This document shows, piece by piece, positions 1-34,488 of a stretch of DNA of 34,488 nucleotides. Within the stretch, counting starts at the first letter, position 1. Every line of letters begins with the position of its first letter. The notes under the pieces were generated by a model. That model was not told the DNA's origin, ran no database searches, and saw only the letters and a program-made list of their open reading frames with translations. This stretch comes from an uncultured Deinococcales bacterium (GTDB taxonomy: Bacteria > Deinococcota > Deinococci > Deinococcales > JAAFIG01), in NCBI GenBank assembly GCA_964247135.1, contig CAXTTL010000021.1, positions 1 to 34,488 of the forward strand. The letters run 5' to 3'. A program made the position numbers and the translations under genes.

Positions 1-402
1 GAGCATGGTCTGGTTTGGCAAACCCGTTAACGCATCGTAGTAAAAAATATACTCGAGTTCGTCCTGGGCGCGTTTGCGATCTGAAATGTCCTCGAAGGTC
101 AAAATACTCTGCGCGTCCACGGCTTTGGAGGCGGTGACCCGCGCCCAGAACAACCGCCCGTCGCCATGCAACAATCGCAACTCGTAGACGCCGCCTTGAT
201 GCAGCAAATCTTTGAGCTTCGCGGCATCGTCTTGATGCACCAAGTCCACCATCGAACGAGTCCGCCACTGATCGTCTGAAAAACCTGAAAGTTGCTCGAA
301 CGCGGCATTGACCTCGAGCGCGTTGGCATCGCTGCCAACCACCACCATGCCGATGGCGGCATGTTCAAAAGCGGTTTCAAAAGGAGATGGGGAGGGCTTC
401 AT
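1..402 (-). CDS. PAS domain + start of GGDEF domain signalling protein (diguanylate cyclase/phosphodiesterase family), 3' end outside window
   Basis: Not in the ORF track; translated by hand from ATG at 402: MKPSPSPFETAFEHAAIGMVVVGSDANALEVNAAFEQLSGFS...DLVHQDD...FEDISDRKRAQDELEYIFYYDALTGLPNQTML. PAS/PAC motifs are followed by the DxLTGLPN motif that opens GGDEF domains, and the frame stays open to base 1. Confidence 0.88.
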   Translation of the reverse strand, partial: MKPSPSPFETAFEHAAIGMVVVGSDANALEVNAAFEQLSGFSDDQWRTRSMVDLVHQDDAAKLKDLLHQGGVYELRLLHGDGRLFWARVTASKAVDAQSILTFEDISDRKRAQDELEYIFYYDALTGLPNQTML

Positions 403-497
403 GATGCCTTGTATCCTAACGGTTTACGGCGACCCGAGCGAATTGTGAATTGAAAGTATTACATCACCATGCCCGAACGGTTAGGATGGGCAAACGT

Positions 498-1793
498 GTG
501 AATCCTCCAGTCGATCAACCCCTCAACCATTCCATGCCACGTTCCGAATTGATTCGTGCCGCGATTGCGGTTTTGATTGGCACGGCGCTGCTACGCCTTG
601 CCGGCGGCGTGGCACTCTCGAGCCTGGGATTGTACCTCAAATCTTTGGGTTCTCAGGGCGCTGAGGTGGCTTTTGTCGCGGCGGGCTACTACATTGCCGA
701 GTTGCTGCTCGCACCCGTCTTTGGGGCGCTCTCAGACCGCGTGGGGCGTAAAATCTTTTTGGTCGCCGCCCCGCTTTTGGGCGCGGTCGCGTTAATGCTC
801 TATCCCTTAAGCTCGAGTTTGCTGATTTTGTTCTTCATTCGATTGATCGAAGGCGTCTCGGCTGGCGCCGCCGCCCCCGCGACGCTGGGTTACTTGTCCG
901 ACCTGACCGACGGCTCAAAATACCGAGGTCGAATCATGGCATTCTTCGAGATTGCCACGCTGTTCGGACTGCTGCTCGGCGGTACGGTGCTTGGACCTCG
1001 AGTCTGGGACGCGTTTCACACCTCGAGCTACCCAATTCTGGCAGGCATTTACCTGCTGGGCGCGTTGGTCTTCTGGTTTTTCTTGCCCAACGTCGGCTTG
1101 CGCGTCCAACACCGCCGCAAATTCGCCGATTACACCCGCGTCCTCTCGAGCAAACGCCTGCTGCGCTTCATGCCCGCCTGGATTGCCGCCACCGGCGTGA
1201 TCGGCTTGTGGCTGGTGCACGTCCAAAATCAGTTGTACGCCGGTAAAAACTCGAGCGTCGCCGGTCAGGCATTGGTCGGATCACTCAATGGTGCGGGCAT
1301 CAGCTTGGTGCTCGGTGGGTTTGGCGTGGTGTTTTTGGCAGGTTTGTACTACGGTTCGCGCTCGACCGAGCGCCGCAGCACCCCGATGCTTTACGCGGGC
1401 TTTGGATTGCTCTGGCTGAGCTTTTGCATGTTCGTGCTCAACCATCCAGAATGGGGACTCGAGTTTGGCTTCAACATCAACCTGGGCTTTACTCAATTTT
1501 ACGCTCGAGGTTGGTTCTTGCTGCTCTTGATCGGTGCGTTTTTTCAGGCAGGATTTACCCCCGTGGCGCTGGCGTACCTTGCCGATATTTCCCAAGACTT
1601 CCCCGAAGACCGAGGCGTGGTCGTTGGCTTGTACAGTATTTTTCTGGCAGGCGGAAATTTAATCGGCGGTTCGTTCCTGGGCAGTATTTTTGTCGGCTTC
1701 TTCAAATTTGATGGGATCGCCATGCTGACCCTGTTGTTCACCTTGGTTGCCTTTGCCAGCGTCACCATCATTCGTCGGAACTCGAGCGATTAA
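498..1793 (+). CDS. MFS transporter
   Basis: About 12 hydrophobic segments and MFS motif A (GALSDRVGRK). Start is uncertain (ATG 486, GTG 498 or ATG 534). Confidence 0.9.
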   Translation: MNPPVDQPLNHSMPRSELIRAAIAVLIGTALLRLAGGVALSSLGLYLKSLGSQGAEVAFVAAGYYIAELLLAPVFGALSDRVGRKIFLVAAPLLGAVALMLYPLSSSLLILFFIRLIEGVSAGAAAPATLGYLSDLTDGSKYRGRIMAFFEIATLFGLLLGGTVLGPRVWDAFHTSSYPILAGIYLLGALVFWFFLPNVGLRVQHRRKFADYTRVLSSKRLLRFMPAWIAATGVIGLWLVHVQNQLYAGKNSSVAGQALVGSLNGAGISLVLGGFGVVFLAGLYYGSRSTERRSTPMLYAGFGLLWLSFCMFVLNHPEWGLEFGFNINLGFTQFYARGWFLLLLIGAFFQAGFTPVALAYLADISQDFPEDRGVVVGLYSIFLAGGNLIGGSFLGSIFVGFFKFDGIAMLTLLFTLVAFASVTIIRRNSSD

Positions 1794-1797
1794 AACC

Positions 1798-2619
1798 ATG
1801 AAACGCCTTGCCTTCAGCCTGATTATACTCGCCTTCGGTGCGCTGGCAAACTCGAGTCCCAAGCAAACCATCCTCGAGCCTCGCATGTACCTACTGTACG
1901 GTTTTGAAACCGGCGACCCTGTGAATGTGTACTTCGAGCGCAAACAAAAACCCGAGTTTAAAACCGTGCGCGTGCCAGGTTTGACTTTAAAACATTGGGG
2001 TTACTTGACCGCCTTTGGCAAGGATTTGCTCGAGCTTGAATTCAACATCACACCCAACATGGACGCCGAATTCAATTCGATTGTGGTGACCGACAGCAAA
2101 AACCTGACTCAAAAAATTGATGTTGGACCCAACCGAATCATGTACCTCAAGCCCAAAAAAGACTACGAAATCAGCTTTGAATTGCTGGAACAAATCCCAA
2201 ATCAACGCCTGTTTTTAAGCATCAACATGTTTAATGATTCTGCCAAACCCGTCACCATCGAACAACTGATTTACGCACCTCGAGCCGCCAGCACGAACCA
2301 GATTCTCTTAAATCCAAAATACGACCCCAAATGGTTTAACAAACTCGAGGCATGGTCAAAAACCAACGACAGCGCCGCGCTCCCCGCAGGTTCACACTTT
2401 GCCAACTCGAGCGATCTGAATTTAAAACTCGAGCCAGGAAAAGGCTTTTCTGCGGCTGTGGTCGCCGCCTCGTTTCAAGAAAAGTTGCTCTGCAAAAAAG
2501 GATTGACGGCAAAACTCGAGGCGGTGTTTTTGCAGCCTGTGGTGAAATACCGGGTTGGAAGCGGCAAATCGCAGTTGTACCCGATACCCGATAATGTGCA
2601 AGCCAATGTTTGCTTGTAA
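1798..2619 (+). CDS. Hypothetical secreted protein
   Basis: ATG 4 nt after the MFS stop; N-terminus MKRLAFSLIILAFGALA looks like a signal peptide; no family recognised. Confidence 0.75.
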   Translation: MKRLAFSLIILAFGALANSSPKQTILEPRMYLLYGFETGDPVNVYFERKQKPEFKTVRVPGLTLKHWGYLTAFGKDLLELEFNITPNMDAEFNSIVVTDSKNLTQKIDVGPNRIMYLKPKKDYEISFELLEQIPNQRLFLSINMFNDSAKPVTIEQLIYAPRAASTNQILLNPKYDPKWFNKLEAWSKTNDSAALPAGSHFANSSDLNLKLEPGKGFSAAVVAASFQEKLLCKKGLTAKLEAVFLQPVVKYRVGSGKSQLYPIPDNVQANVCL

Positions 2620-2623
2620 AAAA

Positions 2624-3184
2624 TTAATCTGCTTTGATAATGCTGACAGGTTGTTCGACACGCATATGAACTCGTGCAAACGCCTGTGAAAATTCTTGAC
2701 GATATGGATGAAGTAGACGTAAAGGTTTTTGCTGTTTGGCGATTTCTAGAGCGACATTGGTTGGTAAAGTCCAAATATCCAATAAATCCACTACTGCACG
2801 GTTAAATCCTAGCGATTCAAGTGTACATGTGTGTAAAGGGAAAACAGTTTTACGTTTTCCAGACACAATTCCGTTCCAAGTGCTTTTAAGAAAGAATGAC
2901 TCTGCTGTGCCATCACCTTCAAAAGACACAGCGCAAAAAAGGATGTGCTGCGCGTCTCTGATACCGCCATTCTCGGCAATATCACAAGAATGAGAAACAA
3001 CTATGGCTGGTCGAAGACGTACTTGAATGGCTGTAAATTTGCTTGGCTCAACGTAAGATTCAAGTGTGGTTGGCAGAACTGGATACGGCACATTCCTTAA
3101 AATATCGCCCTGGTCTAAATCCTGGCCATCTGAAAATTCGTACCAATCCCACATTCGAGGGGCAAGCGTATCATTCATCTTCAC
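2624..3184 (-). CDS. Conserved hypothetical protein with QGDIL...SHSCD...RLLHPYRQEFSQAFARVHMRV motifs (possible PemK/MazF-like fold)
   Basis: 186-aa ORF overlapping the upstream ORF by 14 nt. The spacing GD-hydrophobic...RPAIVVS recalls PemK/MazF toxins; the fold is inferred. Confidence 0.7.
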   Translation of the reverse strand: MKMNDTLAPRMWDWYEFSDGQDLDQGDILRNVPYPVLPTTLESYVEPSKFTAIQVRLRPAIVVSHSCDIAENGGIRDAQHILFCAVSFEGDGTAESFFLKSTWNGIVSGKRKTVFPLHTCTLESLGFNRAVVDLLDIWTLPTNVALEIAKQQKPLRLLHPYRQEFSQAFARVHMRVEQPVSIIKAD

Positions 3185-3563
3185 TCAAGGGGCGGAGTTC
3201 TCGGAATTTCGGGGCATCACCAAGGGTAACTTGAACCGGCATTTCAATGACTTTGCCAATCATTTGGATTCGAGGCAATGGTTTTAAGTCTTCCTCGAAG
3301 GCAAACATAGACGACTCAAGCAAATGCTGTTTGAGAGCTGCATTTTCACGTTCTAATATTTCAATTCGTTCAGACATAACAAGCATTTCATCAAGCATAC
3401 TGGCATTTGCTGATAAAACGGGTGATTCTTGACCATAGAGATCAATGAAAACATCGTTAGCGATTTCAACAGGTTTTACGCTGATATCAAGCTGAGGTCT
3501 TTTACTGTAGGGAATAACTTTGTTGACAACAGAAGTTACTCCAGATAATAAAACGTAACTCAT
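3171..3563 (-). CDS. Hypothetical protein with short coiled coil and acidic tail
   Basis: 130-aa ORF with ATGA overlap on the upstream stop (3560-3563); coiled-coil-like ERIEILERENAALKQHL. Confidence 0.6.
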   Translation of the reverse strand: MSYVLLSGVTSVVNKVIPYSKRPQLDISVKPVEIANDVFIDLYGQESPVLSANASMLDEMLVMSERIEILERENAALKQHLLESSMFAFEEDLKPLPRIQMIGKVIEMPVQVTLGDAPKFRELRPLSEDE

Positions 3564-3871
3564 CGTTCCTCCAAAAGTGGCTTTTGCTCAAATTGTCCTA
3601 AAATTTCGTTTAGATTATCACGCAAGTTGATTGCGTCATTTACGCCAAGTACGAGTCGAGTAATTGGTGATGCTAGAACGTTCACCTTGTCTGCATTGAG
3701 TAATTTCTCTGCGGTTAAAGCATCGGGGTCAATAAAGCCAAAATTGAGGTAAATTTGAGCGTTAAGATGTTGGACAGTTGCAACATTGGCAAATACGGCT
3801 TGTCTGACACCCTCTGGGAATACGACCTTCACTTCGAGTTTTCCTTGCGACGCTCTATTTTCTGAACCCAT
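3560..3871 (-). CDS. DUF3467-like small protein
   Basis: 103 aa with GAGG RBS before ATG. The pattern VFANVATVQH..IYLNFGFIDP...ITRLVL....A..L...L..IL..FE resembles DUF3467 proteins. Confidence 0.65.
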   Translation of the reverse strand: MGSENRASQGKLEVKVVFPEGVRQAVFANVATVQHLNAQIYLNFGFIDPDALTAEKLLNADKVNVLASPITRLVLGVNDAINLRDNLNEILGQFEQKPLLEER

Positions 3872-3979
3872 GTTTTAATTCCTCTCAATTGAAATTCATC
3901 GTATATCAAATACCTTGACATGAGTGTAACTTCATTTGATGAAGAGACCAAAACACGTGAATCACGGTGCTACGGCAAT

Positions 3980-6331
3980 TCACAATCGAAAACGCCTGTA
4001 CGCCAACTCGAGCACCAACAACAATGCACCCAACACCGCCAACCACGGCGCAAGCGAGAATCCCGAGGTTTTGCGGCTGGCTTCGTACCCAGTCAAATTC
4101 TCGAGCACACGCCCACCCGAAGCTTGGGCAATACGCCGTAAATTCTCTAAACCGTTGCCCGTCTCGAGTTCACGGTTTTTGCTTTGCAAGGTGGTGCGAG
4201 CCAGCACCGCCCCAGATTTGACGAGCACCAAACTGCCCGTGGTGTTTTTTGGAATTTGCGCCTCGTAACGCCCTGGCGCGGTTTGGGTCATGTTTAAACT
4301 CTTGCCGCCGACCCGCAGCTCGAGGCGTTGATTGTTGAGGTATCGGTTGCTGTCCACCGCGTCCACAATCGCGCTACCGCCATCCTGCGAGACCGAAAGC
4401 GCGTAAGGTGTGGGTGCAAGCTCGAGCCAGCGCGTGATTGTGCCGAGCAGATTTGGCAGTTCTGCCCAGCGCGTGAAGGCATCATTCCTCGAGAGGTCGG
4501 CGGTTAAGGCAGCCGTGCGTCCCAAACCTTTGCGGGTCACCGCCAGCACGGGTTCGCGGTCCAAGCCCACCAGAATCGCTTCGGCGTCGGGGTGCAAGGT
4601 CGTGGCAATATATGCGCTTAAAGCTGGTGGAAGGCTGGAAACCCTTGCCAGAGGATGCCGCACCAAAGTCGGTTTGAAGACCTCAAGCCGCACCACGCTG
4701 CGGGTTGCGGTTAAAGCCTCGGTGGTGAAAATTCTGGGCAGCGTGTCAATTTGCAGCGCCTCGTAATAGCGTCCCTTGCCCGCCTTGGCAATCGCTTTCA
4801 AACGTGGCACGTCCGCATCCGAACCAACGGCGATGCTCGAGGTGGTGATGCCCGCGTCGTTGGCGGCTTTGGCGATGCCAGGAAAATCTGGGGGCGTGGC
4901 GTTGGTTTCCTCCGCATCGGCGAGTTGTCCGTCGGTCAGCAAAATAATGTGCTTGATCGAGGCTTTTCGCTCAATTAATGCCTGAATCGCCTGACGGTAC
5001 GCAGGCTCGAGAATCGTGCCGCCCTCGGGCTGGACATCCTGCACCGCACGAAGCATTTGCAATTTGTTGTTGTCGGTTGCGCGGATTGGTTTAAAAACCC
5101 ATTTTGCCGTGTCCGAAAAAGTAATCAAACCCAGCAAATCCTTCGGGTTCGCCAGTTCGATCACGTTGCTGACCCCCTCGAGCGCCAATTCGAGTTTTTG
5201 CGCGTTGCCGCTCGAACCCATCATCGACAAACTGCGATCCACGATCATGACCATTGCCACCAGCGGCACATCGACCCGCGTGCGCAAATCGCTGGCGACG
5301 GGCATCAATTCCTCGAGTTTGGTCCTTGCCCAACCGCCCAAACCAAAACTTTTTGCGCCGCCCGTGAACATCAAGCCGCCGCCGTCGTTGACAAAACGCT
5401 CGAGCAACTGCAATTGCCCCCGCGAGTAATCGGTTGCCGCGCCCCGAATGATGATCGCGCTGGCGGACAGCGGCTCGAGGATGCTGGCGGGCGTGCCCTC
5501 GCGCACCACAAAACCCTGACCGCGCAAGAGTTTGGACATGGCTGGATCGCCGATCACCAGTACATTGCCGCGACCCTCGACCCGCAAGCTGAGGGTTTTG
5601 CTGTCATCGAGTTTTGGTTGCTCAAAATTCGGTTCGATCTTGACTTCCAGCGCCGCCTCGCCAGGGTCAGGCACGACAAAATCAATGCCGACACTCGAGC
5701 GACCCGCCGGCAGGGTCAAGGTTTGCACGGGCAGCGGCGCACCGTTCAAACTTGGCAAGATTCGCACCCGAGCCGCCTGAGACAAGCCAATCACCGCCGT
5801 CGCTCGAGCCGTTGCGCCCTTGCTTAAAGAATTTGGCGCGATCAACTCCGCCACGCTGGCGTTCTGGCGCGAGGTTAAAGGCAGGACGTCCACTGGTACG
5901 CCAGGCAGCCGCTCGAGCGCGTTGGCGGTGGTGCTGTTGCCATCCGAAACCAACAGCACCCGCGTACCCTCGTAAGCCTGCGCCACCTGAAGCGCATTGC
6001 CAATATCGGTTTGGCTCGTCTCGAGCGCATCCCTCGGCGTCCCAGCCACCCCCGCCTGACCCGCGAACTCGAGCCTCGCACTGGCAGAAATACGCGCCAA
6101 CGTTTGCGGCGGGGGACTGGCGGAATCACTGACATCCGTCAAAATCACCAAACCCGCCCGAGCCGTCTCGAGGTTCGGGCTGGACGCCGCAAACGCCAAA
6201 ACCAGCAGAGCGATAGACCGCAAAACACCCGTCACGCCGCGAACGATTTGCGCTCGAGAGACGATCAACGCCGCAACAAAAATGATGAGCGCCAAAATCA
6301 AAATCCAAGGTTGCTCGAGGTGCAAGATCAT
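3980..6331 (-). CDS. Membrane-anchored vWA domain protein with central glutamine-amidotransferase-like domain
   Basis: N- and C-terminal TM helices; MIDAS motifs DVSDS and DRSLS...GGT...LLTDG; FVNDGGGLMFTGGAKSFGLGGW segment. Start at ATG 6331 or GTG 6340. Confidence 0.88.
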   Translation of the reverse strand: MILHLEQPWILILALIIFVAALIVSRAQIVRGVTGVLRSIALLVLAFAASSPNLETARAGLVILTDVSDSASPPPQTLARISASARLEFAGQAGVAGTPRDALETSQTDIGNALQVAQAYEGTRVLLVSDGNSTTANALERLPGVPVDVLPLTSRQNASVAELIAPNSLSKGATARATAVIGLSQAARVRILPSLNGAPLPVQTLTLPAGRSSVGIDFVVPDPGEAALEVKIEPNFEQPKLDDSKTLSLRVEGRGNVLVIGDPAMSKLLRGQGFVVREGTPASILEPLSASAIIIRGAATDYSRGQLQLLERFVNDGGGLMFTGGAKSFGLGGWARTKLEELMPVASDLRTRVDVPLVAMVMIVDRSLSMMGSSGNAQKLELALEGVSNVIELANPKDLLGLITFSDTAKWVFKPIRATDNNKLQMLRAVQDVQPEGGTILEPAYRQAIQALIERKASIKHIILLTDGQLADAEETNATPPDFPGIAKAANDAGITTSSIAVGSDADVPRLKAIAKAGKGRYYEALQIDTLPRIFTTEALTATRSVVRLEVFKPTLVRHPLARVSSLPPALSAYIATTLHPDAEAILVGLDREPVLAVTRKGLGRTAALTADLSRNDAFTRWAELPNLLGTITRWLELAPTPYALSVSQDGGSAIVDAVDSNRYLNNQRLELRVGGKSLNMTQTAPGRYEAQIPKNTTGSLVLVKSGAVLARTTLQSKNRELETGNGLENLRRIAQASGGRVLENLTGYEASRKTSGFSLAPWLAVLGALLLVLELAYRRFRL

Positions 6332-8408: not shown

Positions 8409-8508
8409 GAACCGAACCAAATCCTACACCTCGAGCATGGCAAAACCGTGACGAAAGCATTTTTTATCAGGCTTTGCACTTTCGCGCCCAAAGCTCGAGA
8501 ATGAGGGT

Positions 8509-18345: not shown

Positions 18346-19281
18346 TCAAATATGGTGGCTCGAGGCTTCAATTACGGTGTCCTCGGCAAAAAGCGCGGTG
18401 CTCAAGTACCGTGCGCCGGTGTCACAGGCTATCGTCACCACGCGCTTGCCTGCGCCCAAGGTTTTTGCCACCTCGAGCGCGGTGTAAATCATGCCGCCGC
18501 CGCTCATGCCGACAAACAAACCCTCCTGTTTGGCAAGTTGCCGCGCAAACGGAAATGCGTCTTCCTCGAGCACGGTTTTGATCTCGTCGAGCAAGTCGAG
18601 CCTGAGGTTTTTGGGAATAAAACCGGGTCCCATGCCCTGAAAACCGTGCTCTCCCCTTTTCCCGCCTGAGAGCACATTGGAGCGCTCGGGTTCGACGGCA
18701 ATGACTTTGATCTTTGGGTCTTGCTCCTTCAAAAACTGTCCGACGCCGCTGATCGTGCCGCCCGTTCCCGAGCCGTAAACGAACGCATCAATCTGTCCGT
18801 GCATCTGCCGCCAGATTTCTGGTCCGGTGGTTTGGTAATGAATGCGTGGGTTGGCAGGATTCTCAAATTGGTTCGGCATCCACGCGCCCAAAGCGTCCCG
18901 AATGCGCTCGGCTTCCTCGATGGCGGCAAGCATCCGCCGCTCTGGGTCGGTCAATACCAATTCTGCGCCGTAAGCCCGCAGCGTGCGTTTGCGTTCCTCG
19001 GACATTTGCGCGGGCAGGGTCAAAATCAGTTTGTAACCCCTTGCCGCCGCCACTTGCGCCAAACCGATGCCCGTGTTGCCCGAGGTCGGTTCGACGATGG
19101 TGCCGCCAGGTTTGAGCACACCACGTTCTTCAGCATCAAGAATCATGCTGAGCGCCGTGCGGTCTTTGATGCTGCCACCAGGGTTTTGCCCCTCGAGCTT
19201 GACCCAGACCTCCGCCATGTCGCCGTTGGTGACACGCTCGAGTTTGAGGATTGGGGTGTTGCCGATGAACGCGTCGATCAT
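18346..19281 (-). CDS. cysK: Cysteine synthase A
   Basis: IGNTP, KLEGQNPGGSIKDR (PLP lysine), EPTSGNTGIGLA, GSGTGGT and DTGARYLST motifs. Confidence 0.95.
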   Translation of the reverse strand: MIDAFIGNTPILKLERVTNGDMAEVWVKLEGQNPGGSIKDRTALSMILDAEERGVLKPGGTIVEPTSGNTGIGLAQVAAARGYKLILTLPAQMSEERKRTLRAYGAELVLTDPERRMLAAIEEAERIRDALGAWMPNQFENPANPRIHYQTTGPEIWRQMHGQIDAFVYGSGTGGTISGVGQFLKEQDPKIKVIAVEPERSNVLSGGKRGEHGFQGMGPGFIPKNLRLDLLDEIKTVLEEDAFPFARQLAKQEGLFVGMSGGGMIYTALEVAKTLGAGKRVVTIACDTGARYLSTALFAEDTVIEASSHHI

Positions 19282-19336
19282 GTCTCGAGGTTAAGGCTCG
19301 AGATGGTTTCTTGATGTGTTGAGCGCAACTTGGATT

Positions 19337-20937: not shown

Positions 20938-21366
20938 ATGCGTTACTGGATTGGCGTCACCCCGTATGATCATGTTCTGAACGGCGTTAAGGGTGGATTT
21001 TGCCAACTTGGACACGGCAAAAAACCGGCACTCGAGAAAATACAGCCCCAGGACTGGATCATTTATTATTCACCGCGTCAACACATGGCGCCAGACAGCC
21101 AAACACTGCAAGCCTTCAGCGCCATCGAACAGATTTTGACCCGTGAAATCTACCAAGCCGACCTGGGCGATTTCAAACCCTGGCGACGCGATGTGGGCTT
21201 TCTCGAGGTTGCGCGAATCGTGCCAATCCGCCCGTTGATTGCCAAGCTCGAGTTTATCAAAGACCCTGCACGTTGGGGCGATCCATTTTTCCGTGGACAC
21301 CTCGAGATTGGGCGCACAGATTTTGAATTGATTGCCAAGCAGTTTGAGGTTCTATCGGCTGTTTAG
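20938..21366 (+). CDS. EVE domain protein
   Basis: RYWIGV..DHV..GVKGGFCQLGHGK..L......DWIIYYSP..QAFSAI..PWRRDV.F..LEFI...WG..EI...DF..I. Confidence 0.88.
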   Translation: MRYWIGVTPYDHVLNGVKGGFCQLGHGKKPALEKIQPQDWIIYYSPRQHMAPDSQTLQAFSAIEQILTREIYQADLGDFKPWRRDVGFLEVARIVPIRPLIAKLEFIKDPARWGDPFFRGHLEIGRTDFELIAKQFEVLSAV

Positions 21367-21400
21367 ACTGGAATCCAAAAGCCTTGTGACGCCTGAAGTC

Positions 21401-21537
21401 ATACGGAATTAACGAGAACACTCCGTTATTCCGCTTCGCTCCACAACTCCGTTAACCTCGTTGATTCCGTACTTTTGCCACTCCCGTTGGTCGGGGGAAC
21501 AGTCGATAAAGCATGACTGTTCCCCACAATTTGGTAT
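21401..21537. repeat. Short structured intergenic element (MITE / Deinococcus small non-coding repeat-like)
   Basis: Imperfect terminal inverted repeats (ATACGGAATT / AATTTGGTAT); internal stems 21402-21416/21457-21471 (14 of 15 match) and 21494-21504/21515-21525 (11 of 11); CGCTTCGCTC and CTCCCGTTGGTCG motifs. Confidence 0.55.
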
Positions 21538-21558
21538 CATGGGGCTTTTGGATTGAAT

Positions 21559-21700
21559 ATGAACCTCAAAATTGACCCAAAAACGATTACCCAATGGAAT
21601 ACTATTGCCGATTCCAGCCTTGGTGCTTCAAAACCTGACTAAGAAAAGTACGCTATTCTTTGAACTTATGGTAATGTCACATTGCAATCACAGACGCCAA
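21559..21700 (+). pseudogene. Degenerate higA-like fragment
   Basis: MNLKIDPKTITQWNTIADSSLGASKPD*EKYAIL/ELM/AITDA aligns by eye, across one stop and two frameshifts, with the N-terminus of HigA at 24128 (TKTMTVW..ANQLNISPP..LEYEKLLELIQQITDT). Confidence 0.4.
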
Positions 21701-21785
21701 AATGTGCAATATTCACACAAAATCTATCCAGGAAGAGTATTGTTATTTTGAGGTTCAAGCCAACTTCTTCAAAACTTTTTATTGC

Positions 21786-21816
21786 TTGACCCTTACGTTA
21801 GGGTATACTTCAGACT
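21786..21816 (+). promoter_or_regulatory. MerR-type promoter/operator
   Basis: TTGACC-19 bp-CAGACT with dyad ACCCTTACGTTAGGGT (21789-21804), upstream of a MerR-family gene. Confidence 0.7.
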
Positions 21817-21978
21817 CGAAACGTTTAATCAGCAATAATGTGTAAAAACCAAAATTCGGATTGGGGAATTTGCGTTTTGGAATGTCTTGTCAAAGAGGCA
21901 CATTTGCCTGATTAAATCTCGCAATGCGTGTTTAAACTTTTGTTTGAAGACGTGTTAAAGAAAACGAAGGAGGCACTC

Positions 21979-22308
21979 TTGAATCTCGTTCCAATCGGTC
22001 GGTTTTCTCAACTCACAGGACTCTCTGTTCGCGCCTTGCGTCTGTACGACGCGGAAGGTTTGCTGCAACCCAATACCGTGGACAACGAAACTGGTTATCG
22101 GTATTACGACTTAAAGCAAATCCCGACCGCCGAACGCATCCGCAGTTTGCGCGAAGTGGACATGCCGCTCGATGACATCCGCGTGGTCTTGCACGAATCC
22201 AAAAAAGCCAAAGCCAGCATGGAAAAACACCGTGGTCGCCTGATCGAACGCGCAACCACGTTTAAGACCATGATTGACCGTCTCGATAAAATCATGCACG
22301 ACGCTTAA
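21979..22308 (+). CDS. Short MerR-family regulator (BmrR-like HTH and coiled coil, no effector domain)
   Basis: AAGGAGG RBS before TTG 21979; PIGRFSQLTGLSVRALRLYDAEGLLQPNTVDNETGYRYY...IRSLREVDMPLDDI; 109 aa. Confidence 0.88.
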   Translation: MNLVPIGRFSQLTGLSVRALRLYDAEGLLQPNTVDNETGYRYYDLKQIPTAERIRSLREVDMPLDDIRVVLHESKKAKASMEKHRGRLIERATTFKTMIDRLDKIMHDA

Positions 22309-22322
22309 AACAACACGATCAA

Positions 22323-22352
22323 AAAAATCCTGACCATATGGTCAGGATTTTT
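22323..22352. terminator. Intrinsic (probably bidirectional) terminator
   Basis: Perfect 30-bp palindrome AAAAATCCTGACCATATGGTCAGGATTTTT starting 15 nt after the MerR stop. Confidence 0.85.
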
Positions 22353-22444
22353 AATTTAAAGCTAAAGCCTTGATTGACCTGGGCTGAACAAGCATTGGGG
22401 TGTTTCACACAAGGCTTTCAGCAATGGCAGGCTATAGTAACCAT

Positions 22445-23683
22445 GTGAAATCTCGAGTTTTCCCTCAAATTGCTTACATCAGGCTTGCCATCATTGCACA
22501 CGTCCTGCTTGCACCCATTGTGCTCGGTTTTGGGGGTGCGCTTGCCGCCCCAACCAAAATCACGTTCTGGCATTACCTGGGTCAAGAGACAGGCTCGAGC
22601 GTTCTGGATCAACTTGCTTTGGATTTCAATAAATCCCAAAACAAATACCAAATCGACCCGCAATACATTGGTGATTTCAAAACCATTCAAGTCAAACTTA
22701 CGGCGGCGCTTCGGGCGGGTGGATTGCCTGGCATGGCAATGGTGGACAACGCTTTTTTCAGCACGCTCGCACTGACCAAACCTGGGGTGCTCGAGAATAT
22801 GAATGACGCAGTTGCAGCCCTCCCCAAAGGCACAACCCAAGATTTTTTTCCAACGTTTTGGGACAACGGCAATGTTGGGGGCGCAAGGTTGGGTTTGCCG
22901 TGGGCGTCCAGCACCTTGCTGCTGTTTTACAACGCCGATGCCTTTCGCGCCAAAGGTTTAACCCCGCCAAAAACCTGGGACGAATTTGCGACCGCCGCCA
23001 AAGCGTTAACCAACCGCACCAGCAAAGGCGCGATCTTTTTTACCGACGCCTGGATTTTTGGCTCAATGGTCTCGAGCCGAGGCGGCAACCTGCTCGGTTC
23101 AGACAACCTGCCGACTTTTGACGAGGCGACCACGATCAGCACCCTGCAATTCATTAAAGACTTGACCCCCAAATACGCGATCATTCGCACCTTCGGGCAA
23201 GCCAATTTTGCCGTGGTGGACTTCTTGCGCACCAAAGCCTTCATGGTGGTCGTGCCAACCAGCGCCTACCCATTCTTGCCCTCGAGCGCCCCGTTTCAGG
23301 TGGGTGCTGTTGCCCTGCCAGGCAAAACCATTGCCGGCGAAACCCAGTTGGTGACCTTCAAAAGCAACCCGAGTGACCAGAGTAAGGGCGGGTTTGAATT
23401 CTGGCAATACCTGGTCAAGCCAGAAAACCTGGCGAAATTCGACAAGCAAAGTTATTACCTGCCCGTGCGCAAAAGTGCCGTCAAACTGCTGGGCGATTTT
23501 GCCAACAACGCGGTCATGAAAGCTGGACTCGAGGCGCTGGATCGCAGTTACAACCTGCCGCATCTGGTCGATTTTCAAGACTGGCGAGCGATTCTCGAGG
23601 GGCAACTCGAGCGTTGTCTAATCGGTGGCGCGGACGCAAAAGCTTCAATGCTCGAGGCGCAACGCTTGAGTGTTAAAAAATAA
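22445..23683 (+). CDS. ABC transporter substrate-binding protein (sugar / UgpB-like)
   Basis: Signal peptide; KITFWH, LFYNADAFRAKGLTPPKTWDEF and YLPVRKSA; TATAGT 6 nt before GTG 22445. Confidence 0.9.
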   Translation: MKSRVFPQIAYIRLAIIAHVLLAPIVLGFGGALAAPTKITFWHYLGQETGSSVLDQLALDFNKSQNKYQIDPQYIGDFKTIQVKLTAALRAGGLPGMAMVDNAFFSTLALTKPGVLENMNDAVAALPKGTTQDFFPTFWDNGNVGGARLGLPWASSTLLLFYNADAFRAKGLTPPKTWDEFATAAKALTNRTSKGAIFFTDAWIFGSMVSSRGGNLLGSDNLPTFDEATTISTLQFIKDLTPKYAIIRTFGQANFAVVDFLRTKAFMVVVPTSAYPFLPSSAPFQVGAVALPGKTIAGETQLVTFKSNPSDQSKGGFEFWQYLVKPENLAKFDKQSYYLPVRKSAVKLLGDFANNAVMKAGLEALDRSYNLPHLVDFQDWRAILEGQLERCLIGGADAKASMLEAQRLSVKK

Positions 23684-23707
23684 GATCACTTGATCCGTGA
23701 GCACGAC

Positions 23708-23736
23708 TTGACAGGTATGGCTTTTTGTCATATCTT
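23708..23736 (+). promoter_or_regulatory. higBA promoter with operator dyad
   Basis: TTGACA-17 bp-TATCTT, 7 nt before GTG 23744; inverted repeat TGACA-N12-TGTCA (23709-23730). Confidence 0.75.
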
Positions 23737-23743
23737 GTTTTCA

Positions 23744-24055: not shown

Positions 24056-24127
24056 CAGTAAGTGTCAGACGCAATCAAAACCAGTTCAACCGTCTCGAGG
24101 CGGTAATAACCTCGAGGGAAAAAAACC

Positions 24128-25470: not shown

Positions 25471-25628
25471 TTGACGCATCATACGCGGAAAAGCTCGAGC
25501 GTGTTGCTCGAAGTTCACTGAAACTGAGTGACCCGCACGTATCAAGACCAAGCTTGAGGGTTGCGCTTTTAAACTCGAGCTTGATTTGTTCAATGCGCAT
25601 GAAGCCCATAAGCAAGTAAACTGTGTGC

Positions 25629-28503
25629 GTGACCCCAGCCGAATTCGTGACCAAATGGCGAGCCTCGAAACTCAAGGAACGCAGTTCTTCCCAACCACAT
25701 TTTATTGACCTGTGCCGCTTGCTGAACCTGCCCGACCCACCCACCGCAGACCCAACAGGTGAAAGTTACACTTTTGAACGCCATGTCAAAAAACTCACGG
25801 GCAGCAAAGGCTTTGCCGATGTCTGGAAACGTGGCGCGTTCGCTTGGGAGTACAAAGGCAAACACAAAGACCTGACCGAAGCGTACTTGCAACTTTTGAT
25901 TTACCGTGACGACCTCGAGAATCCACCGTTGCTGGTGGTCTGCGACATGGAAACCATTCAGGTTCACACCAATTTTACGGGAACAAACAAAGTCATTACC
26001 GTTTGGACGCTCGAGGATTTACTTGACGATGCCAAACGCGAACGCTTGCGCAAAGTCTGGACTGACCCCAATTCTTTTGACCCGACCAAAGAACGCATCA
26101 GCATTACCGAAGCCACGGTCAAACAATTTTTAAACATTGCCGAATCGCTCAAGCAACGCGAGAACAACCCCGACAAAACCGCGCACTTTCTGGTCAAATG
26201 CGTGTTTACCCTGTTTGCCGAAGACATGGATTTGCTGCCCAGAAACGGTTTTACGCAATTGCTCGAGGCTGCCAAAGAAAAACCTGAGCTGTTCAAACCG
26301 ATGGCAGAGCAACTCTTTGCCCTGATGAGCGAGGGCGGCATCTCGATTTTGGGACGCATTCCCCACTTTAACGGACAGGTTTTTAGTGACGGCGAAGCCC
26401 CAGACCTTGACGGGCGCGAAGTAAATTACCTTTTGACCGCCGCCCGTCAAGACTGGCAAAACGTCAACCCCGCGATTTTTGGCACTCTGTTTGAACGGAT
26501 CATTGACCCGCGCAAACGCGCCCAAATTGGCGCTCATTATACCCCGCCATCCGACATTTTGGACGTGATTGAACCCGTGATTCTCGAGCCGTTGCGCCTT
26601 GAATGGTTGGCGGTACGCACCGAAATCGAACCACTTATTTTAGAAGTTCAACAAAAAGAAAACGAACCCGATGCCTTAAATTTTCATCAGGAAACACCAC
26701 TCTGGCATCACGCCCGAAGCAGCGCCAAAACCAAACTCGAGGCATTTCAAAACCGTCTGGCAAGCGTGAGTGTGCTTGACCCCGCCTGTGGTTCAGGCAA
26801 TTTCTTGTACATGACCTTGCGTTTGTTGCTCGACCTCGAGAACGAAGTCCGAGCCACGATAAGATTGCTCGAGCCTGGGTACGTCGTGCCGGTCAAAGTC
26901 AGTCCGCGTCAAATGCGCGGCATGGAGTTAAACCGTTACGCCCACGAAATCGCCGGCATGGTCTTGTGGATTGGTTTTATTCAGTGGTGCGCCGAGCACG
27001 GTGAGCGGGTTGACCAAGAACCGATTCTCGAGAAGTTGGTTGGACTCGAGAATCGTGATGCGGCTTTGGATGAAGTGACGGGCAAGCCTGCCGAGTGGTG
27101 TGAAGCCGAATTTATTGTTGGCAATCCACCGTTTTTGGGAAATTATAAAATGCGTCAAGAGTTGGGCGACACTTACGCCGAAGCCATCCGCGAGGCTTAC
27201 AAAGGTCGTGTGCCTGGGTCGGCTGATTTGGTGTGTTACTGGTTTGAAAAAACTCGGGAGAACATTGAACAAGGCAAGACAAAACGAGCGGGTTTGATTG
27301 CCACAAACAGCATTCGAGGCGGCAAGAATCGGGAAGTTCTGGAACGCATCAGCGCATCGGGTGGAATTTTTAGAGCCTGGTCTGACCGAAGTTGGGTTCA
27401 GGATGGCGCGGCGGTACGGGTAAGCATTGTCTGCTTTGACGATGGTTCAGAAATTGAACGTGTATTGCTTGAACACAAAGGAAACGAAGATGATCCGACA
27501 ACCCGTGGAACGATCAAAAGGAAAGTCAACAAGATCAATCCTGATCTTTCAAGTGCTGCTGATGTGACCACCGCAAAACGTTTGCTTGAGAATGCAGGAT
27601 TGAGTTTTGAAGGCGTAAAACCTGCTGGAGCTTTTGATATTTCTGAAGCGCAAGCACTCGAGTGGTTGGATTTACCCAATCCTGATGGTGTGAGCAATCG
27701 TGATGTTTTAAAACTGTTTATTGGCGGCAAAGACATAACGGACAACCCTGACAGCCGTTGGATTGTGGACTTCAATCAGATGAGTCTCGAGGCGGCTCAA
27801 CAATTTGCAATTCCTTTTCGATACGTTCAAGAAAATGTAAAGCCAATTCGAGACAAAAATAACGAAAAAGCAACTCGAGAAAATTGGTGGCGGCATAAAC
27901 GCACTGTTCCAGCACTTCGAGCCGCTTTGGGACAGGTCAGTCGTTTCCTAGCAACACCAAGACACATGAAACATCGGGCATTCGTATGGTTCGCGCTTAA
28001 TGCGCTCCCTGGGGATGCGCTTACCGTTGTGGTTTCAGACTCTGACTATATGCACGGGCTTCTCAACTCGAGCATTCACATTACTTGGGGTCTTGCCTCA
28101 GGTACATCAATTGGACCAACACCACGTTATACCCCATACCCCCACATCTTGCTTTGAAACCTTTCCCTTCCCGCACCCAGACCCCACCCAACGCACCGCC
28201 ATCGAAAAAGCGGCGGTGTACCTCGAGCAATGCCGCGCACACCTGAAAGGCAAGGGCAAAACGCTCACGGAGGCTTACAACGCGCTCGAGGACTGCCGCA
28301 AAAATCCCAGCCCGACCCATGAGGCGTACACACTGATGGACGCGCACGAACGGCTGGACAAGGCGGTGTTCGCGGCTTACGGTTGGACGTACCCGCTTTC
28401 AGAAGACGAAATCCTCGAGAAACTGCTGGCACTCAATTTGCAACGGGCGGCATTGCAAGGTGAAAACACAAGCTCGAGCATTGAAAGCGAACCTGAAACT
28501 TAA
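25629..28503 (+). pseudogene. MmeI-like (type IIL/IIG) restriction-modification fusion gene, frameshifted near the C-terminus
   Basis: Nuclease motif GFADVW..FAWEYKG, GAHYTP, motif I DPACGSGNFL, motif IV GNPPF. ATACCCC is tandemly duplicated at 28129-28142; removing one copy restores PRYTPTSCFETFPFP and a single 955-aa frame ending at 28503. Confidence 0.88.
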
Positions 28504-28711
28504 ACGGCTTTGGCATGGTTGATGCTCGAGGTTTAACCACCAACACCAACGCTCGAGTTGTCAGTAAACTCCCACCTGCTCGAGTTTGTTGTTGCCAGTC
28601 GCCGCCCGTAAAGGAATGATGGTAACGTAAAAACCAAATTCAGATTGGTGTAAATCTAAGTCGTACTGCAAACACTAAAATTAGAATTCACTTGAATTGG
28701 AAGGTCATATC

Positions 28712-30720: not shown

Positions 30721-30862
30721 GGGTGCAGGATAAGGATACAAGGTTTGGAATTGGTAAAGAACATTTGGACTCAAAACAAACTGAAAACTGAGTCTCGAGC
30801 CAGGGATATACTCGTTCTTAACCTTGGTATGGGATTTTGAAGGGCATGAGAAAGGTTTTTGA

Positions 30863-31567: not shown

Positions 31568-32865
31568 ATCGAATCTGGTACTCGAGCCTGCGTTGGCGCT
31601 TGACTTTCGGTTATGCCCTGGTCTTTGCCTTGACGGTGATGTTCGGCTCACTTGGCGTTTACCTGGCAACCCAAACGGCATTGATCGCCTCGCTGGACGC
31701 AACCTTGCGCGACACCGCAACGGTGGCGCTCGGCAACATTGATGATCCACCCGCGCCGCCAAAGTTCACCAAAGACCTCAAACCCATCAGCGACCTGGCG
31801 GTTGAACTGCTCGACGCTCGAGGGAAGCGTTTGGATGTGGTCGGACTGACGGGTGATGAGCGTCCGAAGTTGGTCAAGGGGTTTGCCGTCACCACCTCGC
31901 GGCGTTGGTTTACCATCCCGACCTTGGAGCATTTGTGGTTGCGGGTTTCGCGTTCAGATGAAACGCCCGAACGCCTGCTCGAGACGCTGGCTCAAATCCT
32001 GATTCTGGCATCGGTGGTGATGGTTGCCGTGGCGTGTGCATTTGGATTTTGGTTGGCAGACCGCGCCCTGCACCCAGTCGATGCCGTGGCACGGACGGCA
32101 GCACGGATTGCCAACAAGGGCAACTTCAATGAGCGCGTGCCGAGCGCCCCAGGGCAAGACGAAATGGCGCGGCTCACGGGAACGGTCAATGCCATGCTCG
32201 AGCGACTTGAGCTTACTTTGGAGCGCGAGAAAGGTTTCGCTCGAGCCGCCGCCCACGAACTCCGCACACCGCTGACCACCATCAAAGGCAGGCTCGAGTT
32301 GGCGCTCGAACGACCACGCGAAGCCAGCGAATACAGACGCCACCTCGAGATCATGCAAGAGAGCGTCCATGATTTGAGCGCATTGGTGAATCAACTCGAT
32401 ACCTTGGCTCGAGCGGACGCACCCGTTCAGCTCGAGCCAGTGGTCTTGGACGAAATCGCCAGTGAAGTTCTCAAGGCATTACAGCATTCGTTTGAGCATT
32501 CTGGCAAGCAACTCGAGTCATCTCTCAAGCGTACAAGTGTCCTCGCAGAACGTGCCGGAGTTCAACAGGTGTTGGTGAACCTGCTCGAGAATGCCCGCAA
32601 GTACGGTGGGTCAGTCGTGACCCTCAGCGTTGGTACGAATTTTCTCGAGGTGCGAGACACTGGCGCTGGACCCGCACCAGAAACCTGGTCGCAATTGCTG
32701 CGACCATTTGAGCGCGGCTCGAGCGTCCACGGTATCTCGGGCAGCGGTCTTGGACTGCCCTTGGTGGCTGCACTGATTGCCCGTTGGGATGCAAGCCTCG
32801 AGCCTGATTGGAGTGAACAGGGTTTCGCCGTGCGGGTCACTTGGGTGTCGAATCGTTCGACTTAA
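31564..32865 (+). CDS. HAMP-domain sensor histidine kinase
   Basis: ATGA-coupled to the regulator; two TM helices, AAHELRTPL, NLLENARKY, DTGAG and GSGLGL. Confidence 0.95.
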   Translation: MNRIWYSSLRWRLTFGYALVFALTVMFGSLGVYLATQTALIASLDATLRDTATVALGNIDDPPAPPKFTKDLKPISDLAVELLDARGKRLDVVGLTGDERPKLVKGFAVTTSRRWFTIPTLEHLWLRVSRSDETPERLLETLAQILILASVVMVAVACAFGFWLADRALHPVDAVARTAARIANKGNFNERVPSAPGQDEMARLTGTVNAMLERLELTLEREKGFARAAAHELRTPLTTIKGRLELALERPREASEYRRHLEIMQESVHDLSALVNQLDTLARADAPVQLEPVVLDEIASEVLKALQHSFEHSGKQLESSLKRTSVLAERAGVQQVLVNLLENARKYGGSVVTLSVGTNFLEVRDTGAGPAPETWSQLLRPFERGSSVHGISGSGLGLPLVAALIARWDASLEPDWSEQGFAVRVTWVSNRST

Positions 32866-34052
32866 CGGTAAATCCCCGTATGCCCGAGCGAGTACCGACC
32901 TGGTTGCGGAAAGAACGTCAGACCGTGCGGTCCAGCACCAACTTTGATCCGAGCCTCGAGCTTGCCTGAAGTGGTGTTAAAGACATAAACCTCACTGTTC
33001 GAGCGACCCGAAAGCCAAAGCTGCATCCCATCGCTCGAGACGCTGCCCATGTCCGGACTGCCTCCTCCAGGAATCCACCATTTCGCCTCGAGTTCCCGCG
33101 TGGCGACGTTCATGACCGAAACCGAACCTTCTCCCCTATTCGAGATGTAAAACTTCTTGGCGTCCCGACTGGGGTACAAACCATGTGCGCCTTTGCCCGT
33201 CGGAATGAACATGGTTTTTTGCATGTTCTCCAGGTCAATCACGTACACGCCGTTGGCACGCATGTCCGCCACGAAAAACGCTTTGCCTTCTGGAGAAAGT
33301 CGGACATCTTGAGGCATCCCGCCGATGTGCAATTGTCCAGTCACGGTTTGGGTCTGCGAGTCAATTCGCACCAGATCGCCGCTAAACTCGCAGGCTGCCA
33401 GAATGGTGCGACCGTCACGGCTGAAATCCATGTGATTGATGCCTCGACACGGCATTTTTAAGCTCGAGCGCAACTGCCAGGTGTGTGGGTCTTAAAAGTC
33501 CAGACGGCGTTTGGTCTCGGCAACCACAATCGCATTTTGACCATCTGGGGTGAAGTACAAATTGTAGGGTGCAATCACTGGAATCGGTGTCCCAGTTTTG
33601 CCTGTCTTGGGGTCAATCGGCGTGAGCGTGTCACCGACATCATTGGTGACATATAAGGTTTTCAGGTCAAAACTTGGGACGATGTGTTGTGGCATCCTAC
33701 CAACGTGGTAGGTGGCAATAATTTTGAAGGTTTTTGGATCGATCACGCTCAAGGTGTTGCGCTGACCATCAGGCACATAGACGCGCTCCGGAATGCCAAC
33801 AACGGCAGGGTTGAGCATTCCTTGGACGGTGTAGGCGTAAATATCGTCGCGCGAACCTGTCATCGGTCCAGTCTTTTGCGTCACTGCCGGAACATTCAAA
33901 GTTGTGGGTTTGGCGCTGGCAAGCGTGGTGGGCACAGTTGAGAGGTCTTCAGACACCGAGGACATTTGACGTGATACAAACATCACCCCTGCCACCGCAA
34001 CGCCGAGCAGTACGCTACCAGCAATAAAATTTGGTTTCACGAAAAGATTCAT
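32862..34052 (-). pseudogene. YVTN/YncE-type beta-propeller protein interrupted by an in-frame TAA
   Basis: ORFs 33492..34052 and 32862..33473 are in the same frame (RRLDF*DPHTWQLRSSL, TAA at 33492-33494); YVTN-type repeats on both sides and C-terminal PQPGRYSLGHTG. Confidence 0.85.
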
Positions 34053-34488
34053 TTTCTGGCGTACAATCCGAGCAATTTTGACTCAAGCAACTTGTGCTTT
34101 TTGATTGCGCTATGAACTTGTGCCGCGCCCGCGCCTGCGGGCAAACCGAGGCTCGAGACATTGATGGCGTAAAAATCGATGTAATACTCTCGGCGCTTCC
34201 CGTCTTTGGCGGGGCAGGGCGCACTGAACCCAGTTTGTCCAAAACTGTTGACACCCTGCTTAAAGCCTTGCACCCTCAGACCTTGCGGTACACCCTCGAG
34301 AATCGTTGTGGTCGTCACTGGAATGTCGTAGACCTCCCAGGTGGAAAGTGGCGCTGCGCTGGTGTTGTCATCCCAACCCAGAATCGCAAAACTTTTTGTG
34401 CCCACGGGAATATTTTTGATGTTTAAGTTTGGACTTACAGCGGTTTTCATAATGGTTGACGCGCCAAACGATAACCGCAATCTAAAAA
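34049..34488 (-). CDS. YbhB/YbcL (PEBP/RKIP-like) protein, 5' end probably outside window
   Basis: VSPNLNIKNIPVGTKSFAI..WEVYDIP..QGVNSFGQTGFSAPCP..YYIDFYAI; frame open to the window edge; ATGA-coupled to the propeller gene. Confidence 0.8.
   Translation of the reverse strand, partial: FRLRLSFGASTIMKTAVSPNLNIKNIPVGTKSFAILGWDDNTSAAPLSTWEVYDIPVTTTTILEGVPQGLRVQGFKQGVNSFGQTGFSAPCPAKDGKRREYYIDFYAINVSSLGLPAGAGAAQVHSAIKKHKLLESKLLGLYARK

Follow-up and report, generated by a model that had tools for sequence, protein, structure and literature searches.

An iterated CTCGAG palindrome, conserved at the DNA level, in a Deinococcales genome and its family

The CTCGAG field of the window and of the source genome

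The window studied here is a stretch of 34,488 bp from an uncultured Deinococcales bacterium (assembly GCA_964247135.1, contig CAXTTL010000021.1) that is densely populated by the palindromic hexamer CTCGAG. The word occurs 244 times, or 7.1 times per kb, as compared to a mean of 6.46 copies (sd 2.32, maximum 12) in 100 dinucleotide-preserving shuffles. A first-pass annotation had counted about 240 copies, which is thus confirmed, and had likened the word to HIP1, the highly iterated palindrome (HIP) of cyanobacteria. Of these sites, 211 fall within the open reading frames (ORFs) listed for the window (31,001 bp) and 33 entirely within the remaining 3,487 bp. The features on which the following text draws are:

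1..34488, no strand: CTCGAG field, 244 sites over genes and spacers (count and shuffles)
450..1793, plus strand: MFS transporter gene with nine CTCGAG in all three phases (MFS_1, E 4.7e-28)
2515..4007, no strand: longest stretch free of CTCGAG, 1,492 bp, GC 0.42, three ORFs without Pfam match
19281..19305, no strand: hairpin with a nine-pair stem formed by two CTCGAG (19284, 19297), an example of word pairs as stems
21301..22452, no strand: second stretch free of CTCGAG, 1,151 bp, GC 0.44, one gene of the MerR type
24056..24127, no strand: higB-higA spacer of 72 bp with CTCGAG at 24094 and 24111 (HigB_toxin and HTH_3 ORFs)
25623..28503, plus strand: MmeI-family type IIL restriction-modification gene with 17 CTCGAG (domains; PDB 5hr4, E 1.5e-47)
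28525..28584, no strand: three intergenic GCTCGAG (28525, 28552, 28579) at an exact spacing of 27 bp, the intervening sequence being unrelated

The MFS transporter gene illustrates how the word is read. Six of its sites are in phase 2 (617, 812, 1022, 1145, 1250 and 1781), two in phase 1 (997 and 1504) and one in phase 0 (1458), and the three different readings claimed earlier for positions 1458, 617 and 1504 are found as described. The same holds for the density between genes, with two sites in the higB-higA gap and three in 28504-28600. A tandem-repeat reading of the latter triple was rejected, as Tandem Repeats Finder finds no repeat there.

The source genome assembly (G000) comprises 5,091,702 bp in 386 contigs, the largest of 115 kb, and is 84% complete. 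It contains 33,925 copies of CTCGAG versus 1,369 expected by base composition, a 24.8-fold excess that corresponds to about one site per 150 bp. The word ranks first among all hexamers both by count and by the ratio of observed to expected copies (O/E), the runner-up among palindromic hexamers having an O/E of 3.7. When a Markov model is applied genome-wide, as had been proposed, the excess persists: 67,850 occurrences on both strands stand against 1,926 (first-order) and 4,701 (second-order), i.e. 35-fold and 14-fold. Each of the 297 contigs with a length of 5 kb or more contains the word, at 2.56-10.53 per kb (median 6.77), in agreement with the claim that it is a genome-wide feature and not confined to one contig. 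Specificity relative to other TCGA-centred hexamers is likewise borne out, since the sibling palindromes TTCGAA (O/E 0.12), GTCGAC (0.09) and ATCGAT (0.96) are not enriched. The bases flanking the word show a weak preference for G(-1) and C(+1), 39% each.

Reading frames, spacers and conservation between congeners

Coding sequences of the source genome were approximated heuristically, with no trained gene caller, by 3,738 ORFs of 150 amino acids or more, the longest being taken wherever ORFs overlapped. They contain 26,681 sites, 16,332, 4,167 and 6,182 of which are in phases 0, 1 and 2, respectively. Shuffling synonymous codons within genes (five runs) leaves 3,719 sites (sd 45), a 7.2-fold difference. 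The shuffle expectations for the individual phases (2,885, 294 and 540) are each exceeded 5.7-14 times, those for phases 1 and 2 11-14 times. Outside all ORFs of at least 60 amino acids the density is 7.28 per kb versus 6.53 in coding DNA. The statement of the first-pass annotation that no Leu-Glu codon effect is at work can therefore be upheld: the excess survives synonymous shuffling, is seen in all three phases and extends to non-ORF DNA that is just as dense. A dicodon-preserving shuffle, also suggested there, is invalid as a test because it retains phase-0 sites by construction.

The effect on the proteome is considerable. Leu-Glu is the most over-represented dipeptide in the source genome (2.38 times expectation), and 16,332 of its 21,213 occurrences (77%) are spelled CTCGAG when independent codon choice predicts 2,398 (11%). 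The reversed dipeptide Glu-Leu is at expectation (9,060 versus 8,926), from which it follows that CTCGAG altered protein sequences. The word has bent both codon-pair choice and amino-acid sequence towards itself.

Codon usage, dipeptide preference or base composition could in principle yield such an excess as a by-product. In 20 GC-rich genomes of other phyla, which served as a codon-usage baseline, CTCGAG is indeed found at 0.2-2.75 per kb and its reverse, GAGCTC, is comparably frequent (ratio 0.8-4.1), and in Thermus-like genomes Leu-Glu is spelled CTCGAG no more often than codon usage predicts. The source genome, however, has a GC content of only 52.7%, CTC makes up 24% of its Leu codons and GAG 46% of its Glu codons, and neither the spelling of Leu-Glu nor the ordinary frequency of Glu-Leu fits a by-product. 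Counts by phase, shuffles and counts in non-ORF DNA refute this explanation for the source genome, and its chance of being correct is negligible.

Comparison with a congener, G005, was based on 394 kb aligned to the source genome, which gave 286,248 aligned bases at 84.9% identity. The third base of CTC diverged in 65 of 892 cases before GAG (7.3%) and in 368 of 1,000 cases elsewhere (36.8%); for GAG the values are 48/905 after CTC (5.3%) and 321/1,101 elsewhere (29.2%), for CGA 19/189 within the word (10.1%) and 135/365 elsewhere (37.0%), and for TCG 29/317 (9.1%) and 194/792 (24.5%). This divergence of 5-10% at synonymous sites within the word versus 25-37% for the same codons elsewhere agrees with the earlier idea of a process that keeps CTCGAG. 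Among 1,852 aligned sites, 78.7% are intact in G005 versus 45.6% for other hexamers, and outside ORFs 238 of 306 sites are intact versus 42.7% of other hexamers. The orthologue alignment called for earlier thus finds the word conserved in all frames and in non-coding DNA. At 239 non-coding sites, identity amounts to 92-94% for the six positions of the word, compared with 77-85% for the flanks and 83.8% for the background; conservation beyond the core, as in elements of the REP/MITE type, is absent, with flanks at background and only a weak base preference. One-off variants of the word (n=1,146) are identical in G005 in 38.0% of cases, below the 45.6% of other hexamers, and 12.1% of those in the source genome read CTCGAG in G005. 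Such variants represent intermediates of turnover, not forms that are tolerated, and the constrained unit is exactly six bases long. We are highly confident that CTCGAG is a real, actively conserved HIP-like feature that acts at the DNA level.

Turnover was followed in six genomes of the same genus over 10,349 shared columns of the window, a small sample from a single locus. CTCGAG is intact in all six at 44 of 89 columns, versus 7.4% for other hexamers. Single-lineage losses number 20 and single-lineage presences seven, and 14 of the 20 losses are lone C-to-T or G-to-A transitions. Concerted multi-base gain events were considered and rejected, as the apparent gains occur at hypervariable hexamers with intermediates in other lineages. 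Four public sequencing runs were found, all from one study; they are stored as contigs and contain only 5-6% of the words sampled.

Gaps between sites in the source genome average 148 bp with a coefficient of variation of 0.96; gaps of less than 20 bp (0.25-0.55) and of 300-999 bp (0.73-0.86) are in deficit relative to a geometric distribution, and the spacing is somewhat more even than random. The longest stretch free of CTCGAG measures 2,644 bp and just 18 such stretches in 5.09 Mb reach at least 1.5 kb. Of the nine longest, seven have a GC content of 0.27-0.40 and encode STAND-type ATPases, a reverse transcriptase (RT)-protease fusion, O-antigen ligase or orphan ORFs; rRNA was rejected as their source because 47 kb hold no rRNA and one tRNA only. 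They are foreign islands devoid of the word, and binning may have removed other atypical contigs from the assembly. Three of these islands, G000:C4:51606-53234 (beside a tRNA gene), G000:C13:5540-9091 and G000:C70:14265-16157, encode a reverse transcriptase-trypsin-like protease fusion and large STAND/AAA_16 ATPases, which are probably recently acquired defence genes. Within 30 nt past stop codons the density of the word doubles to 12.7 per kb. Pairs of CTCGAG 9-22 nt apart are located just downstream of the stop in 241 of 3,445 genes, and 97 of these 241 pairs are followed by a T-rich tail versus 9.9% in the background; CTCGAG is thus built into terminator stems. The density of the word is lower in the most conserved proteins (rho -0.24, p 8e-4).

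Xu et al. proposed for HIP1 that density and spacing are selected (PMC5861425), and CTCGAG might accordingly be the binding site of a nucleoid or chromosome-organising protein. The slightly even spacing and the conserved positions of the sites would fit, as would the long-range periodicity, at 10-90 kb, described in the same work for HIP1. In the source genome, the gap distribution is nevertheless near random and no candidate protein was found. An exact hexamer without tolerance of one-off variants is moreover rare among nucleoid proteins, and we consider such a role improbable.

Some further features of the window deserve mention. In the MmeI-family gene, an 844-aa ORF overlaps with a 167-aa ORF encoding the C-terminal domain, a split that indicates a frameshift or a sequencing error. 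The higB-higA pair (23690-24541) is present in congeners G003 and G001. G005 lacks it in the syntenic region, G004 lacks at least part of it there, and the matches of G002 do not include it. Segments at about 6380-6440 and at 6532-6618 match dozens of places on many congener contigs at 80-98% identity and look like dispersed REP-like repeats. A YNCE-type beta-propeller is represented by three successive minus-strand ORFs (32862-34480) that may be a broken gene.

Distribution across Deinococcota and the methyltransferases

The phylum survey covered 301 genomes, including the unpublished G265, on which no result rests. Assignment of the window's family to Deinococcota fits an RpoB segment of one member, whose best matches, over its full length, are the Thermus RNA polymerases of PDB entries 1iw7, 1hqm and 1i6v. 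The eleven genomes of the window's family contain 12,028-33,925 copies of CTCGAG (4.3-6.7 per kb), and all 18 other sampled genomes of this family hold 838-4,448 copies of GCTCGAGC each versus 0-165 of the reversed word. One genus with 100 genomes has merely 26-1,010 copies of CTCGAG per genome, and in another with 31 genomes the word is about as frequent as the reversed-word control. Avoidance of CTCGAG (0.05 per kb at a GC content of 62%) as well as of GAGCTC is strong in the former, to which G052 belongs, and an XhoI-family nuclease was not detected there. A sharp contrast exists even within a genus: G253 has 24,536 copies (7.0 per kb) and G197 has 683 (0.3 per kb), and an RpoB tree of 23 genomes places the two as sisters with a support of 100/99. 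Rich and poor lineages interleave on this tree so that at least four transitions are needed. Richness in CTCGAG is patchy and labile across the phylum, with the window's family uniformly rich among the sampled genomes. Moderate values in family f2 are ambiguous, because they have to be read against the baseline of 0.2-2.75 per kb in GC-rich genomes. A scan for clustered triples of GCTCGAGC returned at least 120 loci, which among the matches listed are mostly from GC-rich Actinomycetota and Myxococcota; as whole genomes, these organisms are at the codon-usage baseline only.

The imprint on proteins follows the same pattern. In the rich genomes, Leu-Glu O/E values and the fraction spelled CTCGAG amount to 2.28 and 0.75 (expected 0.11) for G005, 2.23 and 0.70 (expected 0.08) for G253, 2.01 and 0.82 (expected 0.21) for G196, and 1.84 and 0.72 (expected 0.33) for G181, that is, 2.0-2.3 in three genomes of two families and 1.84 in a fourth genome from a third family. 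For G207 of the ambiguous family f2, 1.25 and 0.49 (expected 0.18) were obtained. The poor genome G197 has a Leu-Glu O/E of 1.35 (bootstrap 1.26-1.45) with a fraction of 0.10 spelled CTCGAG (expected 0.09), and four other poor genomes range from 0.87 to 1.21. The excess in G197 may be the fossil of a rich ancestor; its interval overlaps that of poor G205 (1.04-1.35).

It is conceivable that the word is a fossil in the window's genus as well: a past drive would have filled the genome, its determinant would since have been lost and the word would be slowly eroding. The predominance of losses over gains in the six congeners and the share of single C-to-T or G-to-A transitions among the losses (14 of 20) are in accord with erosion, no reader gene was found in the source genome, and G197, with Leu-Glu raised though its codon pair is at chance, suggests such decay elsewhere. 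A dead word would, however, decay at the neutral rate. Substitution within CTCGAG is 3-5 times slower than in the same codons elsewhere over the divergence between G000 and G005, non-coding DNA included, and this counts against a fossil, as do the densities retained by all sampled genomes of the family and the overlap of the G197 and G205 intervals. We rate this explanation as slightly less probable still than a nucleoid role.

The source genome was searched with profiles for five methyltransferase families (PF07669, PF00145, PF01555, PF02384 and PF02086), the XhoI nuclease family and Vsr, and the neighbours of the genes found were then annotated. Six complete type II systems emerged, in each of which the methyltransferase is paired with a nuclease for another, strongly avoided word. 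They comprise systems of the NgoPII type (GGCC, O/E 0.016, contig C14), the Eco29kI type (CCGCGG, O/E 0.006, C178), the MvaI/BcnI family (CCSGG, O/E 0.066, C189) and the PvuII type (CAGCTG, O/E 0.011, C36), a NotI-like system (GCGGCCGC, 0 copies, C207 and the edge of C4) and a SacI-type system on C320 (L014:320-2244) with 0 copies of GAGCTC versus 1,369 expected in 5.09 Mb. The SacI-type system consists of a D12-class methyltransferase beside a SacI-family nuclease, and its target is CTCGAG reversed. G253 encodes a methyltransferase 74.5% identical to the SacI-type enzyme of the source genome and contains only 30 copies of GAGCTC. As SacI-type systems restrict GAGCTC, the reversed-word control of our survey is itself restricted in many of these genomes. 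Homologues of restriction-system methyltransferases with in-frame stops or splits were noted at L106 (G019), L108/L111 (G220) and L282 (G005); restriction systems appear to decay while their target words stay avoided.

Both C5 methyltransferases of the source genome belong to the GGCC and CCGCGG systems and none is free for CTCGAG. What is left are two MmeI-family genes, a type I HsdM, a 1,499-aa methyltransferase-SNF2 fusion and one sporadic methyltransferase-like protein. Enzymes of the MmeI, type I HsdM and methyltransferase-SNF2 kinds are not known to read 6-bp palindromes, and since the MmeI family recognises asymmetric words, the MmeI-family gene of the window is no candidate reader. The fusion protein (G000:C112:1668-6167) combines an N-terminal Eco57I/N6-type methyltransferase with a C-terminal SNF2 helicase and is encoded next to a weak ParB-like ORF. 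The window itself encodes a stand-alone EVE-domain protein (20938-21366) directly 3' of a MarR-type regulator gene; the EVE fold has been linked to the reading of modified bases.

Three individual candidates were discarded. N4B on C36, considered as an orphan CTCGAG methyltransferase, is a homologue of M.PvuII (PDB 1boo, E 1.5e-149) with its own PvuII nuclease and C protein as neighbours; 5 of 24 rich genomes in the panel and none of the 19 poor ones encode a copy that is 40% or more identical. A 466-aa methyltransferase-like protein on C4 is sporadic, with an 89% copy in G005 that has two in-frame stops and weak matches in G300, G009 and the poor genome G058. A methyltransferase fragment at the edge of C4 proved to be the N-terminus of the NotI-type enzyme on C207.

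The first-pass annotation had proposed an orphan XhoI/PaeR7I- or TaqI-like methyltransferase coupled to methyl-directed repair. This idea did not gain support. With the five families, no XhoI-, PaeR7I- or TaqI-like orphan was found in the source genome, nor was a PaeR7I-sized Eco57I-type methyltransferase; G009 has an enzyme of the latter kind without homologue in the source genome. The XhoI nuclease profile (PF04555) matched none of 48 genomes, control genomes being equally silent, and Vsr (PF03852) was not found in the source genome. One-off precursors of CTCGAG are not depleted there (O/E 0.5-1.7, except CTAGAG), the same being true for the deamination products TTCGAG (1.74) and CTTGAG (1.17). 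The expectation that a methyltransferase tracks the enrichment across Deinococcota found no support either: no compared methyltransferase is common to all five motif-rich genomes examined, and the four rich genomes besides G000 have no orthologue in common with it or among themselves. Given an assembly that is 84% complete and the five families searched, the link to methylation is unsupported.

Maintenance coupled to methylation has nevertheless to be weighed seriously. An orphan CTCGAG methyltransferase would mark the word, and methyl- or mismatch-directed repair would restore or create it. This is Elhai's model for HIP1, and genomes with HIP1 or an alternate HIP are reported to have methyltransferases that target the word or its core, an association only (PMC4390886). 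CTCGAG methyltransferases of three chemistries exist, m5C in Halorubrum (PMC8112702) and m6A and m4C in giant viruses (10.1101/2019.12.21.884833), so that different lineages could plausibly use enzymes that are not orthologous. In its sharp limits of six bases and its intolerance of one-off variants, CTCGAG resembles a target of the restriction-modification type, and poor G197 lacks C5, N4/N6 and Eco57I-type methyltransferases, many of which are present in its rich sister G253. On the other hand, all recognisable type II methyltransferases of the source genome are committed to nucleases for avoided words, the remainder are sporadic or of kinds not known to read 6-bp palindromes, and the negative results for shared orthologues, Vsr, XhoI-family nucleases (silent in controls as well) and depleted one-off words all speak against it. 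Even for HIP1, the correlation between abundance and methyltransferases failed a significance test (PMC13756078). On balance, we regard methylation-coupled maintenance as somewhat unlikely.

Relation to known iterated words and a possible self mark

The closest parallel is offered by cyanobacterial HIP1 (GCGATCGC) and the alternate HIPs (Elhai, 2015, PMC4390886; Xu, Lawrence and Durand, 2018, PMC5861425), and the likeness claimed at the outset, frame-independent, in coding and non-coding DNA, genome-wide and lineage-wide, is well founded. Both words are short GC-rich palindromes that are hyper-abundant throughout genes and spacers, with sites conserved between related genomes and with exceptional lineages that lack the word. 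HIPs occur about once per 1,000 nt (PMC4390886). CTCGAG is about seven times denser (about one per 150 bp), is a hexamer instead of an octamer, and resides in another phylum. Its one-off variants are not conserved, unlike the HIP1* variants, for which conservation is described in the literature. It is strong enough to make Leu-Glu the top dipeptide, and, unlike for HIPs, a cognate methyltransferase was not found in the source genome within the five families searched.

Uptake sequences, i.e. the DNA uptake sequence (DUS) of Neisseria and the uptake signal sequence (USS) of Pasteurellaceae, are non-palindromic words of 9-12 bases that occur about once per kb and tolerate variants. Typically they are evenly spaced, have fewer copies in constrained proteins and form terminator stems as pairs. 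CTCGAG resembles them in being over-represented in resident and scarce in foreign DNA, in its more than randomly even spacing, in its sparseness in the most constrained proteins, in its pairs that serve as terminator stems and in the presence of uptake genes. It differs in being shorter, palindromic, denser and intolerant of variants. The Dcm/Vsr system is comparable in that a single short palindrome gains, through repair, at the expense of words that differ by one base. The very-short-patch bias for CCWGG in E. coli is well under 2-fold, and in contrast to that system the source genome has neither Vsr nor a free C5 methyltransferase, and TTCGAG and CTTGAG are not depleted. Restriction-modification systems of the XhoI/PaeR7I kind read exactly the same six bases. 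Avoidance of the word would be the expected outcome, as it is for the targets of the six type II systems in the source genome, whereas CTCGAG is enriched.

Our tentative reading is that CTCGAG is an exact six-base palindrome of the HIP type that is kept under DNA-level pressure and functions as a self mark in recombination or transformation. The pressure acts on the DNA itself and not on the peptide, in all frames and between genes. A sequence reader with the precision of a restriction enzyme would have to exist, presumably as a discrete determinant gained and lost between lineages. CTCGAG would label resident DNA as 'self' when it undergoes homologous recombination or natural transformation, and fragments or alleles carrying it would be preferentially kept. 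Among the functions considered, a self mark is the likeliest, though with less than even odds; the same role is now proposed for HIP1 and is established for uptake sequences. The MmeI-family gene of the window, accessory in that its query (5814-8711) is without match in five of five congeners, is still rich in the motif with 17 sites in 2.9 kb, which we count in favour of a self mark. ComEC and DprA are both encoded in 15 of 15 genomes labelled rich, a finding that is compatible with a role in uptake. The more specific version, in which a palindrome independent of methyltransferases acts as self mark and its reader was gained or lost at least four times in the phylum, is rather doubtful.

Several points weigh against a self mark. 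Neither a receptor nor a reader candidate was identified in this analysis, and the absence of a CTCGAG methyltransferase candidate extends only to five Pfam families and an 84%-complete assembly. With no more than six bases, CTCGAG offers little for a specific receptor to recognise. Known uptake receptors tolerate variants, and zero tolerance of one-off words fits an enzyme of the restriction-modification type better. ComEC and DprA also co-occur in six of nine motif-poor genomes and therefore do not discriminate between rich and poor; being near-universal, competence genes were rejected as discriminators. Thermus and Deinococcus are naturally competent, and the sampled Thermus-like and Deinococcus-like genera are without the word. 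Finally, at the one locus followed in six congeners, losses outnumber gains (20 versus 7), a turnover unlike that of an ongoing drive. A methylation-coupled process is nearly as likely as a self mark; a nucleoid role and a fossil are less likely.

A full-text search, with most subscription journals out of reach, revealed neither over-represented CTCGAG nor an iterated palindrome described for Deinococcota. For some thirty years HIP1 has lacked an explanation, and the literature examined describes it from cyanobacteria alone. The present case, which is independent, denser and located in a different phylum, shows that the phenomenon is general. There are practical consequences as well: unmodified sites would allow XhoI to fragment such DNA at intervals of about 150 bp, and composition-based binning and detection of foreign DNA in these lineages can make use of CTCGAG. 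The excess of Leu-Glu demonstrates how far a proteome can be reshaped by a DNA word of six bases. Sister genomes that are rich and poor in the word, together with a saturated family, provide natural contrasts for finding the responsible gene. If CTCGAG is indeed a self mark with a reader of its own, phylogenetic profiling could identify that reader and solve the HIP problem in a system that is about seven times denser.

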